A program made the position numbers. From Escherichia coli (GTDB lineage: Bacteria; Pseudomonadota; Gammaproteobacteria; Enterobacterales; Enterobacteriaceae): a stretch of DNA of 64,000 nt. This document shows, piece after piece, positions 21,001 through 27,000 of this stretch. The stretch is taken from assembly GCF_009931435.1 (NCBI RefSeq), contig NZ_CP043414.1; one strand, given 5' to 3'. Within the stretch, counting starts at the first letter, position 1. Each line of letters begins with the position of its first letter.

Positions 21001-24000
21001 ATTTTTATCTTTTATTTTATTTACAGTTTCAATGCAATCAGCGACAAGTTGGTGTGGATTTAGATTCTTCAGATATGGTCTTATGATCTTTCCCTTGCTT
21101 AATAAATAGCATGTATAAGATTCGGAAAGTCCAGCATCTATTTTGTACATCATTATTCTAGATAAGGATGTGAGAAATGCCTTGTTATCATTAGCAGCCA
21201 TATATGCCAGTCCGAGTTCAGCCTCTGCGGCTTTACATGAAAAATAGCTAAGTGAACACGCTTTTCGTCCCTCTTGGGTACTGGCTGATATTAGTGCCCA
21301 TAATATTGCCTTGTCTGCCAAATCCAACTCTCTCTGAAATTGGTTTACAGTAACTGCATTCGCAGAAATAGAGAAAAAAAGCACAATTGTTAATAACCTT
21401 GCCATATTTCTAGTCCGTCACTGTTAATGTGTTATCTGGCTCTGAAAATATTAGCTCATTTAATTTTTGCATGTCATTAGATGAACCAGTTATACAACCC
21501 TCGGAACAGAATCGAGGTCCTAAAGATGGACCAAAAGCGTTTAAACAACTATGTATTAAAAATCCATCACGATTATACGTTTCTGTATTTGCTGACGGTA
21601 CTAAACGTATACCATTAGGTTTTCTATTAGTTGCTCCAGGACCATTAACATTCCAGGTCCATACCCCTTGAGGTATTGGGCCTCTATTTTGTAAGTGTGT
21701 ACAACCAGGATTATTTTTACATTGCATATTATTACCATTATTACCAGAGGCGACTGAAATAGTAAGCACACCATAAGAATTATCATCACCTGGTATATCT
21801 GAAACACACGAAAGCATACCTAAAGTTATGCTGTATAAACAGGTGGCTAATCCCAAGGGGATCGATTCCAGAAATCGGGTTCAAAGGATACTGATAAAAA
21901 TTCCACCTACCTTCCAGCCCAATCGGAGCCTGAGTGTTATACCGCCCCTGCTGCGGTTAATGTTACCGATAATAGTTATAGTACAGCCCTGATTCATCAT
22001 CATACTACTGCTGCGGCAGTCTGATGAATTATTGCTTTTACGGATTCTCCTTATTCTTCCTTCTATCCATTCGCTTTAGCTTTAGCTTTAGCTTTTTGAG
22101 CTCTTGAAGTTTGCTCTTTGCATCAATATTACCGTTATTTACAGCGAATTCCATCCAATAAATAGCTTTATTCAAATTATAATATTCTGATAATATTGGA
22201 TTTGTATCCGATAAAAAAACTCCATAATTAAACTGCGCTGTAACATTCCCCTGAGATGCTGATCTTTCTAAGTATCGCAATTGTTTGTAAATGTTATTTT
22301 TAGTAAAGCAGTAATATTGATATAGTCGAAATGATGCCTCTGAATCACCATGTTGTGATTTATACTTCAGTTTCATCAACTTTTCTTCACTTAAATCATA
22401 GGTCATTGCTGTAGACCCCATCATACTTTCGTTTTGTTTTATTTTCACATCAGCACCATGCAATTGAAAAATAAAAGAGAAATAAAAAAATAGTAACAAG
22501 CATGCTTTCATACATCTACAACCTATCTTATATCACTGGGTTTTTCTGGCGTACCTTGCATATTAGAAATGGGGTGCCCAGATGGCCCATATGTTATCCA
22601 ATTACCAAGGTCTTTTGTTGTTATAGCCATAAGATCCTTATTTGAATTAAGGTTCGTTGGTGCTGTTAGCACTGTATCCATTTTTAACTTACCATTAGTT
22701 CCTCGCCCCACCACGTCCATAGCGTGTCAGGTCCTATTACATTTGTATGTAACTCTTTAGCTAATTGGCTAGCAAATGAATTTTGTCCTTTACCTGTATT
22801 ACAAGAAAATAACCAAACTGTCATCCCATCTTTATAATTCCCATCAAATTTAATTAGATATGCTAGATCTTTAGCTGTCATGATACTGCGCGTTGCGGAT
22901 TCAATAGATGTGGGGGTACCATGCCCCCCGATTGTGAAAACGCCTGGGATATTAATCTCATCAGCTACAGAATGGATAAGATCACTTTCGGGGTATAAAT
23001 TTATATCAACCAAACCTTGCGGATCTACATTTATGACCGGATCCAACGGATACTGATAAAAATTCCATCCCCCCTTCAGCCCAATTGGATCCTGAGTGAT
23101 ATACCGCCCCTGCAGCGGGTCATAATAGCGGTGGCGGTTGTAATACAGGCCGGACTCCTCATCATACTGCTGCCCCGGCAGCCGGATGAGCTGCTGCAGT
23201 TGATGCGGGTTCTCTTCATTCAGCAGGTTGCCCCATTCATCATATTCTGCGTACCACGCTGTTGCCCCTTCCGTGCTGACAAGCGCCAGGGGCAGACCGC
23301 GATGGTCGCAGTGGTACAGGTGAATTTTTCGCGCCGGCGTGTACACCGGGTCCATCTGGTTTTGCATCTGCGTCACCGTCAGGCCGCACGATGCCAGCCA
23401 GCGGCGGCTTTCCTCACTCACCCGGTCAGCCAGGATTTCACTTTCCAGCCGGTCGAGCATCTGCACCGTGCCGGCGGGAATACCCCACTGTGCATAGGCA
23501 ACTCACGCTATGAACGCTTCAGCTTATCAATAGCGGAAGTTATAATTTCATTGTCATCAAACTTGTACAACATAGTATCTAAAACAGGAAGTAGCGTTTT
23601 ATCACCTAATTCACCCGCAGCTTCAATGATATCATCATAAACAGTATTTTTTTTTAACTCATCGCATAAAACAGATAAAACCCTTTTATCTTTTCTGTAG
23701 GAAAGTCCGATTATTGCTTCAATACGGACTTCCTCATTTTTATCCTGAAGCATCTCCACAAAACAATCCCTAATATCACTATTATCATATTTATTGATAT
23801 TTATTGCAAATGCGGCCCAGTTTCTGACATCTCCATTTGGATCTTTTAACAGATTAATCAATAGTGGAATTGTTGCTTTATCATTGATAACAGAAATAGC
23901 AAATGCTGTAGCACGTCTGACATTAGTCGATTTATCAAAAGCAGTAATTTGAGATTGTTCTACTATTTTAGGTGAATAAATTGGGTTTTTCTTGCATCGC

Positions 24001-27000
24001 TGAGCCGTTGACTCGATTGCCGTAGCTCGAACGCAAGCGCTCTTATCATTCAATGCCATATTGTTCAAAATATTAAACACATTACCTTCGCATTTTTTGC
24101 AAATTTTTATTTGCCCGAGTATAAATGCTCCGATATCTCTACGGATATAATTTTTATCAGAGCAGAACTCAATTGCCAATCTAACAGCGTCTTGCCCACC
24201 TCTTAACTGTAATACTCTGGCAGATGAAATCCTTTTCAAGGAATTGTGATCATCAAGTAAGCGAAATAATTCATCATCATTTAGTTTCTTACATTGATTA
24301 TATAAACCATACTCTTTACTTGCCTTTCTTTTCTGGTATGTATTTGACATTGCAGGAACCTCCATAAAGGCTATCTTTTTTTATCGTTTGACTGTCTGGA
24401 GTGACGACAATTCCAGGCTTTCTGTGTGCTTTTTGCATCTTTAGCACTAATATCACCACAATCAATTAGTTCCTGAAGTACGTCACATCTGTCGGGTTTT
24501 TTCCCATCACTCCAGAATCTGTCATTTATTATGTCATTGACACGATCAGTTATCCCTGTGTCTGCAACATTTCCACGAGAAGCTATCATTGTTATATCTA
24601 ATGCTAGTCCCGGATTATTCAATATTAGAGAGTCAAATATTCTTTGTGATGCTGTATCGTTCCACCATTTTGTCAATGCTTTTGCAGCATTATCATCTGC
24701 TTGCTGCTGTGCAGGGCTTTTTGGCCATGGAATTGGCAAGGGGAATGGTCCAGGAAAAACTTCTAACCCCAGAGGATCTGTATTCGTAACTGGATTCAAC
24801 GGATACTGATAAAAATTCCATCCCCCCTTCAGTCCAATCGGATCCTGAGTGATATACCGCCCCTGCAGCGGGTCATAATAGCGATGGCGGTTGTAATACA
24901 GGCCGGACTCCTCATCATACTGCTGACCCGGCAGGCGAATGAGCTGCTGCAGCTGTTGCGGATTCTCTTCATTCAGCAGGTTGCCCCATTCATCATATTC
25001 TGCGTACCACGCTGTTGCCCCTTCCGCGCTGACAAGCGCCAGCGGCAGGCCGCGATGGTCGCAGTGGTACAGGTGAATTTTTCGCGCCGGCGTGTACACC
25101 GGGTCCATCTGGTTTTGCATCTGCGCCACCGTCAGGCCGCACGATGCCAGCCAGCGGCGGCTTTCCTCACTCACCCGGTCAGCCAGGATTTCACTTTCCA
25201 GCCGGTCGAGCATCTGCACCAGCACCGGCGGGAACACCACACTGCCACCGTCTTCGCCGCCGGACTGCTGAAGCGCATCCGCCAGGCTGCGGCGCTGCGT
25301 TTTCGCCAGCTCACCGGTGGCGGTTTCGACCCTGATGAGTGGCGTGAAGCTCCCCGGCTGATAAACCGTCTGGATGCGGGTTCTGTCGTTCTGTATCGTG
25401 GTCAGCCGGTCGCCGTCCCAGCCGTACCAGGTCACTTCCGGTTTCCGTGACAGCGACATCCAGCCCGTCAGGTCCCGTTCACGCCGCCACACCCGTTTTG
25501 CCACCCTGCGGCCCAGCGGGTCGTAAAGATAGCGACTTTCGACCAGCGGCTCTGCATATTGTGTCCGCGTGTAGTGCACCAGCCGGTGCTGACTGTCGTA
25601 ATGGTACCGGTGAGTCCGCTCATCATCCGTGCGGATAACCCCTTCCGGGATGAGGTCGGTTTTCTCCGTCAGCCTGCCGTGACGGTCATACCGGTAAAGA
25701 TAGTGCGCGTCACGTGTTATACGATTATCCGGCCATATGCAGAGGGTGCTGTCCGGGTGCAGCTCCGGGTCAGGCAGGCGGTTACCTGCCGGGTCCGTTG
25801 CATACGGGATATCAATGCCCAGGTTACATATAATAATAAGAGCAATTAACTTTATTTATTTATAATGCGCTTACTTAATACAAACCATTGAATATACCCT
25901 CCTGACAGAAAATAAAGCCATATTATTATCGCCATAATATACTTACTATCAATTCTTACGCCAATAATGTCTGAAATACTCCCTATAAATATTAGAGCGA
26001 TAAAGAATACTATGCCTGTTGGAAAACATATTACCATCATTCCATAAGACATGAGACTAATTAACTCGCTCACATCACGAGTGGAGTCTAATAGTGAAAG
26101 TCTATGCATGGAAAAGAATAGCATTAAAAGTGATAACGCCAGCCATATAGCTCTGAATGAAAAAATAATATATTTCATTACATCACTCCGGTGAATACAA
26201 ATCTAATAAAACGTCCAATGTTATTTCCGGAGCACTTCATCTTACATGTTTCTAAAGAATCATTAGACCAGTCTTGGCAGTTTTTAAATAGCCCTAAATT
26301 TATAGGTGTGAATATATCAGGCAATACAGAATAACGCGGCCTTACCTCTTTAAACTTCCCTTTTAAACAGTTCTCCACACAACTATTATCGGTTTCAACG
26401 AGGTCACAACGGCCAGCAGCTTCTTTTGTATCATTACTTGCTTTACCTGGCCCCCATAGACCATCTCCTTTTGATTCTCCCCGTTGGTCTTGGCCACCAC
26501 AAGTATAGTCCCCTTTACCATCTGGGACACAAAGATATTGATGATAGAACAGATTCCCCCATATATCTGGACCGCTTCTTTCACCAGTTCCGCCCATTGA
26601 ATGCAGTGGCTTAATGCATTTTAGTGTTTCTAATCCTAATGGATCTATATTTGAGATCGGATTCAACGGATACTGATAAAAATTCCACCCGCCTTCCAGC
26701 CCAATCGGATCCTGAGTGATATACCGCCCCTGCAGCGGGTCATAATAGCGATGGCGGTTGTAATACAGGCCGGACTCCTCCTCATACTGCTGACCCGGCA
26801 GGCGGATGAGCTGCTGCAGCTGGTGCGGGTTCTCTTCATTCAGCAGGTTGCCCCACTCATCGTATTCTGCGCACCATTCTGTTGCCCCTTCCGTGCTGAC
26901 AAGCGCCAGCGGCAGGCCGCGATGGTCGCAGTGGTACAGGTGGATTTTTCGCGCCGGCGTGTACACCGGGTCCATCTGGTTTTGCATCTGCTCCACCGTC

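Follow-up and report, generated by a model that had tools for sequence, protein, structure and literature searches.

An Ntox34 toxin tip and its yibA gene, carried as an orphan behind a full-length rhs gene of Escherichia coli, were very probably displaced there when a 1867-bp unit of RhsC type recombined into the locus, an event that would have left the old toxin silent and yibA in place, with re-fusion of the tip still possible. This reading of the window, a 64,000-nt stretch of contig NZ_CP043414.1 (RefSeq assembly GCF_009931435.1), draws on what is directly observed: the anatomy of the locus, its homologies, a junction held in common with another rhs locus, and the distribution of the parts among complete genomes. 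The region is an orphan toxin-immunity cassette of an already described kind, and everything in it fits published models. The original prediction had proposed replacement of a C-terminal toxin and its immunity gene by a new pair; comparative genomics supports the displacement, but the incoming pair is not new, being a widespread rhsC tip/ybfB cassette.

All features of the rhs region lie on the minus strand (Table 1), with a GC-rich core and AT-rich tips as in published orphan modules. The full-length ("main") gene, whose first 600 residues match DUF6531 and RHS repeats (Pfam), sits at the yibF-yibH locus, and the intergenic region upstream of it is of the rhsA-locus type (9 mismatches vs. 64). 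Its tip, in contrast, differs from that of K-12 rhsC by 0-1 mismatch per 200 nt and is unrelated to the tip of REL606 rhsA. The orthologue in the genome 2020CK-00188 is named rhsC by RefSeq, an annotation name that tracks the tip, not the locus. Neither the RhsC-type tip nor YbfB matched any Pfam, NCBIfam, or PADLOC family; the toxin activity of the tip is only putative, and ybfB is presumed from its position to be the corresponding immunity gene.

Table 1. Features of the rhs region, numbered from the first base of the window
Feature	Position	Strand	Basis or remark
Full-length (main) rhs gene	26178..30371	-	1397 aa; DUF6531, RHS repeats and core; ORF list
RhsC-type C-terminal tip of main rhs	about 26181-26627	-	K-12 rhsC comparison
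3' core repeat copy within main rhs	26628..27677	-	1050 nt; blastn self-comparison
ybfB	25852..26178	-	108 aa hydrophobic small protein; ORF
Junction of ybfB and truncated core	25811..25851	-	Same as K-12 ybfB-ybfO junction
Orphan core fragment, 5'-truncated	24761..25810	-	350 codons of rhs core 3' end, frame intact
Displaced C-terminal tip, Ntox34 toxin domain	24371..24760	-	Pfam PF15606, E 9.5e-43
yibA, HEAT-repeat protein	23508..24350	-	280 aa; Pfam HEAT_2; ORF list extends to 24365
Second orphan rhs fragment, yibJ-like	22684..23490	-	470 nt core and another tip
yibG-like Sel1-repeat gene	22038..22511	-	ORF; RefSeq "yibG: sel1 repeat family protein" at orthologous position
Third orphan	21410..22056	-	About 180 nt degraded core homology and tlde1-domain tip
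Imm57-family immunity gene of third orphan	20884..21405	-	ORF, 173 aa; intact

Behind ybfB, a truncated piece of rhs core leads into a different tip. When the region was compared with itself by blastn, 24761-25810 aligned with 26628-27677 over 1050 nt without gaps (95.4% identity, 48 mismatches, E = 0). These two core copies are spaced by 1867 bp and share 10 stretches of perfect identity that reach 30 nt or more, up to a maximum of 244 nt. The match had been placed at 26650-27676, which is essentially right, and described as nearly identical: the homology holds over its full length, and at this identity the wording is slightly generous. Differences between the copies are mainly synonymous (pS 0.119, pN 0.023), suggesting that both diverged within functional genes and not by decay in place. 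As foreseen, the orphan core continues in frame into a different C-terminal domain. Its single open frame of 493 codons (25852 to 24371) contains the RHS core end (PF03527, E 5e-16), passes through the DPLGL motif at the PxxxxDPxGL boundary, and enters a tip that bears no relation to the main one (the two begin EVFPGPF... vs. ETLKCIK...). The Ntox34 match covers model positions 1-80 of 80, and the motifs given for this family, GNxxD and WxCxH (PMC3482391), can be read in the translation as GNVAD and WNCRH. One residue (G/R) separates the tip from that of REL606 RhsA, and the DNA from orphan to yibA is 98.4% identical to REL606 rhsA-yibA over 2303 ungapped nt. The fragment was also expected to have no credible start codon, and it has none: an in-frame stop lies upstream at 25858, the frame being open from 25855, and the earliest ATG, GTG, or TTG is a GTG at 25579, 92 codons in, with no Shine-Dalgarno sequence (duplex -1.1 kcal/mol). 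RefSeq lists the same fragment in 2020CK-00188 as a pseudogene "missing N-terminus."

The yibA gene starts 20 nt past the stop codon of the Ntox34 toxin and has a GGAGG Shine-Dalgarno sequence of its own before its ATG at 24350. The gene (sequence ...tatggaggttcctgcaATG) is intact; its product gives two HEAT_2 matches (Pfam, E 8.7e-07 and 3.7e-06) and differs from REL606 YibA at 1 of 280 residues, confirming the HEAT-repeat YibA that had been anticipated after the fragment. An association of Ntox34 with Imm-HEAT proteins has been described (PMC3482391), and a passage of PMC3150448 credits Vlazny and Hill (1995) with the finding that yibA neutralises the toxic C-terminus of RhsA. By analogy with this literature, from which the cognate function is taken, yibA is the cognate immunity gene of the Ntox34 tip.

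To place the arrangement among its relatives, we drew on 5,426 complete E. coli genomes. Because separate hits are pieced together and scored by coverage, and any rhs core gives a match (a median of 5-6 places per genome), the counts that follow are bounds only. At the yibF-yibH locus of REL606, K-12, and many others, full-length rhsA itself ends in the Ntox34 tip and is followed by yibA, and in at least 1,712 genomes the module adjoins 1 kb or more of core. The comparison that the original prediction had called for, of which tip sits on the full-length core, thus gives Ntox34 in K-12 and REL606 and an RhsC-type tip in the window, which supports displacement. The order ybfB followed by an Ntox34/yibA orphan occurs in only two of the 5,426 genomes, and only one of these, 2020CK-00188, has the stacked arrangement at the yibF-yibH locus. 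There, the full-length gene ends in an RhsC-type tip and is followed by ybfB and then by a 5'-truncated Ntox34/yibA pair; the 13-kb structure is colinear with the window in one piece (99.1%), and 23400-26300 is 99.6% identical with no gaps. In the genome EC26, the sequence between orphan core fragments of this same locus was later deleted.

The junction behind ybfB points to where the incoming unit originated. Sequence identity of ybfB is 100% with 2020CK-00188 and 97-99% with the others, and the gene is present in 2693 genomes; a query spanning the junction was covered to at least 80% in 2644. K-12 (L004) is colinear across the junction of ybfB and core (95/100), its pseudogene ybfO has the same 5' boundary as the orphan fragment, and alignment offsets give the 1867-bp period at K-12 rhsC-ybfO as well. 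Bases 25811-25814 are common to ybfO and the XH990 orphan and occur in no full-length core compared. Since both junction and period match K-12 rhsC-ybfB-ybfO, the event is best read as homologous exchange between rhs loci, not illegitimate insertion, and the incoming pair would have brought along a downstream junction and core fragment that it already possessed. The two ybfB copies in 2020CK-00188 suggest that the cassette was copied rather than moved. A site-by-site comparison of the orphan core, main core, K-12 ybfO, K-12 rhsC, REL606 rhsA, and the XH990 orphan gives clear outer limits, namely the junction at 25811-25814 and a tip boundary near 24790; no single breakpoint is callable among these six cores, which are mosaic and 95-100% alike. 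Likewise, no upstream end of an rhsC-like stretch is callable in the main gene, whose core is about equidistant from K-12 rhsA and rhsC along its length. None of five comparators is identifiable as the immediate donor, since the orphan core has eight private substitutions between 25715 and 25799 that are present in none of them.

From these observations we infer which way the exchange went, that the toxin is silent, that yibA is expressed, and that the orphan could be reactivated. The ancestor's yibF-yibH (rhsA) locus would have been organized as in K-12/REL606, with a full-length core, Ntox34 tip, and yibA. A 1867-bp unit, made up of the last ~1 kb of an rhs core with its RhsC-type tip, of ybfB, and of the short junction that follows ybfB, would then have entered the 3' end of this core via core homology, from an rhsC-type locus where ybfB was already followed by truncated core. 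The outcome would be an RhsC-type tip on the full-length gene and an old Ntox34 tip left with 350 core codons, cut off from its promoter and start codon and from the N-terminal and shell regions on which export depends, so that most likely the toxin is neither made nor delivered. yibA, with its own ribosome-binding site, could be translated from read-through transcripts; a scan of the minus strand from the main rhs gene to yibA found no terminator-like site, which is weak negative evidence with counts within chance. The retained gene may keep the cell protected from relatives that deploy the Ntox34 toxin. Further, the 1050-bp direct repeats would be a substrate for RecA recombination, and a crossover between them would delete the RhsC tip and ybfB, re-fuse the Ntox34 tip, and regenerate a K-12-type gene. 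Delivery of any Rhs protein by a type VI secretion system lies outside what the window shows.

The same repeats raise the converse history, in which the stacked arrangement is ancestral and the K-12/REL606 type derives from it by deletion, nothing having been inserted. Direct-repeat recombination would give exactly the K-12-type structure, and deletions between core fragments do happen at this locus, as EC26 demonstrates. As far as the pair of structures is concerned, the two histories are equivalent and the deletion is disfavoured only by frequency, with the stacked type at the locus in 1 of 5,426 genomes against the at least 1,712 in which the tip sits on 1 kb or more of core. Further points against it are the second ybfB copy in 2020CK-00188 and the junction downstream of ybfB, which is native to the rhsC locus, as well as the orphan core itself, which, with up to seven differing sites per 100 nt and its private substitutions, was not the parent of the REL606 rhsA 3' core. 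We consider ancestry of the stacked type very unlikely, and the distribution argues against this history, one of the two grounds for refutation that the original prediction had named. The rhs cores are also long multi-copy repeats, a classic source of misassembly, and a collapsed or mis-joined repeat among rhs loci could produce a false tandem. However, the core copies are distinguishable at 48 of 1050 positions, rhsA-locus sequence lies on both flanks, and the independently assembled 2020CK-00188 has the same 13-kb colinear structure, on which ground we rejected an artefact, whose probability we regard as negligible.

A separate question is whether the orphan is expressed. An internal promoter and a non-canonical start could yield a short intracellular Ntox34 that, with YibA, would resemble a type II toxin-antitoxin pair and stabilise the cassette or modulate growth. 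In Salmonella Typhimurium, main and orphan Rhs tips have an internal promoter, P2, and a CTG start, with an effect on growth (Starsta et al. 2020; PMC7043789), and in the window the orphan frame is intact over its 493 codons, the Ntox34 motifs are conserved, and there is an in-frame CTG at 24901 with GAGGAG ahead of it (duplex -8.9 kcal/mol). The putative promoter region of those tips can be aligned here, just upstream of the sequence coding for DPIGL/PxxxxDPxGL, but a conserved Salmonella-type P2 was not found in the orphan core: identity over the 108-bp region is about 70% (76/108), below the at least 80% over at least 95 bp used in that study, and both hexamers are degraded, the -35 reading ATGATG and the -10 reading TACAAC where Salmonella has TACAAT, with the last T lost. 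A promoter scan predicted none on the minus strand at 24800-25000, and the nine promoter-like sites in the region are within chance (6.4 +/- 2.8 expected). The GAGGAG consists of Glu-Glu codons and lies between the would-be -35 and -10, and would thus be absent from a P2-type transcript. Such independent expression, the other ground for refutation named in the original prediction, seems improbable, and we assume from the sequence that the orphan toxin is silent. Doubtful to a similar degree is a compound scenario in which Ntox34 is expressed at a low level, by read-through or a weak promoter and a non-ATG start, in an addiction-like relation with YibA, and in which the genome is also a fresh intermediate, with the 1867-bp unit as an excised circle. 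If true, low-level expression would explain the preserved 493-codon frame, and tip switching in E. coli could be measured in this strain as it occurs naturally.

Two further orphans, absent from the original prediction and each followed by its own small gene, lie downstream from yibA. The second is older than the yibA orphan, and the third is the oldest. Core homology in the second (23021-23490) is 93-95% identical to the other two core copies by blastn and matches the RHS_core end of NCBIfam (E 3.5e-91); its annotation in both L001 and L003 is that of an RHS pseudogene, and the yibG-like gene is presumed to be its immunity gene. In the third, core homology (21847-22056) has fallen to 76-79% identity (blastn), and RefSeq annotates a "tlde1 domain-containing protein" together with an RHS pseudogene interrupted by an internal stop. 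The gene at the position orthologous to its immunity gene, "Imm57 family immunity protein" in RefSeq, is frameshifted in L001 and L003 and intact in L002 and L006.

Published orphan rhs-CT/rhsI modules (Jackson et al. 2009, PMC2935791; Poole et al. 2011, PMC3150448) have the organization seen here, in which a full-length rhs gene is followed by same-orientation, 5'-truncated cores, each reading in frame into a different AT-rich tip and followed by a small immunity gene, and the same tips occur on full-length genes in other strains. Nothing essential differs, and in the window the cassette can be traced to the rhsC-ybfB-ybfO locus type. Jackson et al. (2009) proposed C-terminal displacement through a recombinogenic circle, and the common 1867-bp period and junction fit this homologous-recombination, circular-intermediate version of the model. 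In terms of K-12, the displaced tip and yibA correspond to the RhsA tip and YibA of K-12/REL606, and the main tip and ybfB to the RhsC tip and YbfB; K-12 differs in that its Ntox34 tip is on the full-length gene and its RhsC tip at the kdp-ybfA locus, whereas here the RhsC-type tip occupies the rhsA locus and Ntox34 is the orphan. A functional parallel is the rhs locus of Salmonella Typhimurium LT2 (Koskiniemi et al. 2014, PMC3967940), which likewise consists of a main gene, an immunity gene, and an orphan tip with immunity gene, joined by a 95% direct repeat. The LT2 toxins are unrelated to those here. In LT2, the orphan toxin was deployed by recombination across a 522-bp repeat; with 1050 bp at 95%, twice that length, reactivation of the orphan in the window is plausible by analogy.

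Mechanism, toxin family, immunity family, and reactivation route are all published, so the region opens no new question. It is a textbook case of how rhs loci swap toxins and keep old immunity genes, and it explains why yibA is retained without an attached delivery gene. The 1050-bp direct repeat marks a site for tip switching or deletion, and genomes of the EC26 type show such deletions.

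With yibF-selA-selB to one side and yibH-yibI-mtlA to the other, the locus is the E. coli rhsA locus. All of its features lie on the minus strand and are listed below in the direction of transcription; the GC profile along them is the classical rhs composite pattern, with 60-68% in the core and 32-40% in the tips (C-terminal toxin domains) and small genes.

Features of the rhsA locus in the order of transcription
Feature	Position	Strand
Full-length rhs gene, 1397 aa	30371-26178	minus
ybfB, small hydrophobic gene, 108 aa	26178-25852	minus
Junction, 41 nt	25851-25811	minus
Start-less rhs fragment	25810-24371	minus
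yibA	24350-23508	minus
Second rhs fragment, then Sel1-repeat gene	23490-22684, 22511-22038	minus
Third, degraded fragment with tlde1-type tip, then Imm57-family gene	22056-21410, 21405-20884	minus

When the region was compared with itself by blastn, 24761-25810 in the start-less fragment (the orphan) aligned with 26628-27677 in the full-length main gene over 1050 ungapped nt at 95.4% identity (E = 0). Translation of the orphan gives a frame open over 493 codons, which matches the Pfam RHS protein family at the conserved core end (E 5e-16) and continues through a ten-residue motif into an Ntox34 domain (Pfam, E 9.5e-43 over the full model length). The main gene departs from the orphan directly after DPLGL, and its RhsC-type tip has no family match in Pfam; in yibA, HEAT_2 repeats were detected. 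These results bear out the original prediction of an rhs-core tail that runs in frame into a different C-terminal domain and is followed by yibA. The predicted repeat is real, although its strand and exact coordinates had to be corrected, and the copies are 95% identical rather than “nearly identical.” The fragment also lacks a credible start, as had been proposed: there is an in-frame stop 5′ of it at 25858, and the earliest ATG, GTG, or TTG is the GTG at 25579, without a Shine-Dalgarno sequence, in contrast to yibA, which has a properly spaced GGAGG ahead of it.

The two core copies differ by 48 mismatches and agree without a mismatch over ten stretches of 30 nt or more, the longest being 244 nt. 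The differences are mostly synonymous (pS 0.119, pN 0.023), as expected if each copy diverged within a working gene before the two were brought together, and at odds with decay in place. Opposite the GC-rich core copies lie antisense ORFs of 188 aa each, 24884-25450 (+) and 26751-27317 (+), which occur twice as a result of the core duplication; they are most likely artefacts of base composition, not genes.

A search of 5,426 complete E. coli genomes recovered the 13-kb locus as one uninterrupted colinear block only in 2020CK-00188 (99.1%), for whose orphan the RefSeq annotation is [quoted passage not shown] The next best matches (REL606, E. coli B and C, ATCC 8739, and K-12 relatives) cover 94% in two pieces; they are without a 1867-bp segment and have yibA directly behind the tip. 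REL606 aligns with the window across core fragment, tip, and yibA at 98.4% over 2303 ungapped nt, with one residue different in the Ntox34 tip and one in YibA. A contiguous core (at least 1 kb), tip, and yibA occur in at least 1,712 of the genomes searched, and ybfB lies immediately 5′ of this module in only two, the second being the K-12 derivative MT102. Alignment across E. coli genomes, as proposed with the original prediction, thus finds the Ntox34 tip on full-length rhsA in the REL606 and K-12 types and supports displacement of an old pair, with the refinement that the incoming pair was not new. It is the resident rhsC/ybfB cassette, which appears from these comparisons to have been exchanged between rhs loci through homologous recombination. 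The main gene is nearly identical to that of 2020CK-00188 apart from two 200-nt patches, 27607-27806 and 28807-29006, in which mismatches cluster (8-9 each, versus 0-4 elsewhere); other rhs cores look to have donated these patches by gene conversion over short tracts.

The main-gene tip and ybfB correspond to the K-12 RhsC tip and YbfB with 0-1 mismatch per 200 nt, and colinearity with K-12 ybfB-ybfO extends from ybfB over the junction and into the truncated core (95/100 for the junction windows), ybfO being the truncated-core pseudogene behind rhsC-ybfB. At 25811-25814, four bases are common to ybfO and the XH990 orphan and occur in no full-length core compared; the ybfB-core junction was found in 2644 genomes. 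Equivalent core positions in the main gene and in the fragment that follows lie 1867 bp apart in the window as well as at the K-12 rhsC locus. Because junction and spacing match that locus, the core 3′ end, RhsC tip, ybfB, and junction probably moved as one block with core homology at both sides, as predicted by the recombination/circular-intermediate model of Jackson et al. (PMC2935791). There are two copies of ybfB in 2020CK-00188, and in 42 of the 2693 ybfB-positive genomes; the cassette was therefore copied, not relocated. XH990-type genomes have an rhsA locus with an RhsC tip on the main gene, ybfB, an orphan RhsB tip, yhhH, and a yibA pseudogene. Their ybfB allele is K-12-like while that of the window is rare (found at 99% identity or more in only 11 genomes), which suggests that the cassette entered rhsA more than once. 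Exact crossover points were not callable by site comparison of the rhs core copies, which are mosaic and 95-100% alike. Towards its 5′ end, at 25715-25799, the orphan core carries eight substitutions that 2020CK-00188 shares and that are missing from the main core, K-12 ybfO, K-12 rhsC, REL606 rhsA, and the XH990 orphan.

That the stacked form is instead ancestral we regard as very improbable, given that it is rare, that its junction originates from the rhsC locus, and that ybfB is duplicated. An assembly artefact is excluded for practical purposes by the independent genome colinear with the window. Somewhat less remote, if still unlikely, is internal expression of the orphan Ntox34 tip as a toxin-antitoxin pair, for which Salmonella offers a precedent (PMC7043789). 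However, the 108-bp region of P2, the Salmonella internal promoter of Rhs tips, aligns at only 70% in the window, where the −35 equivalent is ATGATG and the −10 equivalent, TACAAC, has lost the terminal T of Salmonella TACAAT; a promoter scan found no promoter-like site in this P2-equivalent region.

Related structures were seen elsewhere. The MT102 rhsC (kdp-ybfA) locus (NZ_CP034953.2, 3130934-3139603) holds rhsC, ybfB, an orphan Ntox34 tip, yibA, an orphan RhsB (DUF4329) tip, yhhH, a HEAT remnant, and ybfD; it aligns colinearly with window 23400-26300 at 98.1% and differs from MG1655 (ybfO-ybfC-ybfQ-ybfL), reflecting either a separate inter-rhs recombination event in a laboratory lineage or a misassembly. 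Ten genomes have a ybfB with 99.4% identity to the window allele, and of these EC26 was inspected: its YbfB has the protein accession of 2020CK-00188, and at its rhsA locus (5910-7327 of the extracted region) a main gene with RhsC tip and ybfB precede a core fragment joined straight to the last cassette. In EC26, both the Ntox34/yibA pair and the yibJ/yibG pair are gone, apparently because one orphan core fragment recombined with another. TOK-001 is another route to a start-less Ntox34 gene, in that full-length rhsA itself has lost the 5′ part adjoining yibF (4712-6823 of its region; a 2.1-kb fragment remains, “missing N-terminus”), with yibA intact and IS1 copies nearby.

The Ntox34/yibA pair is the most recent layer of a three-deep orphan cassette stack. 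Behind yibA, the second orphan has a yibJ-like tip and the Sel1-repeat gene yibG, and the third a tlde1-type tip and Imm57; core homology shrinks and degrades along 20884-23490 (−) from 470 nt at 93-95% to about 180 nt at 76-79%, and the orphans resemble layers left by one displacement after another. In the window the Imm57 ORF is intact, and in 2020CK-00188 and REL606 it is annotated as frameshifted. ISAs1-family (H-repeat) elements are a classical part of Rhs elements, and a transposase remnant of this family lies between the stack and yibH at about 20532-20721, as mapped from the annotation of the orthologous site in 2020CK-00188. Elsewhere in the window, a 1517-aa ORF at 7658-12211 (−), with strong but sub-threshold matches to the trimeric autotransporter adhesin models Ata, EmaA, and YadA (best E 6e-98), is an adhesin gene absent from this neighbourhood in K-12, and two small repeat-derived E. 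coli RNAs exceed the Rfam gathering score: naRNA4 (42354-42432, −, 67.8 bits) and ES036 (56625-56667, +, 43.5 bits).

Every element of this arrangement has been published before, as has the mechanism. Growth is inhibited by the RhsA C-terminus, which yibA neutralises (Vlazny and Hill 1995, as cited in PMC3150448), and HEAT-repeat immunity proteins are associated with Ntox34 tips (PMC3482391). Because it is without a start and everything 5′ of the last 350 core codons, the Ntox34 fragment is probably not translated, or at least not exportable. A scan found no minus-strand terminator-like sites between the main gene and yibA, and yibA may still be expressed via read-through transcripts. In Salmonella, recombination across a 522-bp repeat of 95% identity joined an orphan tip to the main gene again, after which the tip was deployed (PMC3967940); here, the 1050-bp repeat could restore a K-12-type rhsA through a 1867-bp deletion.
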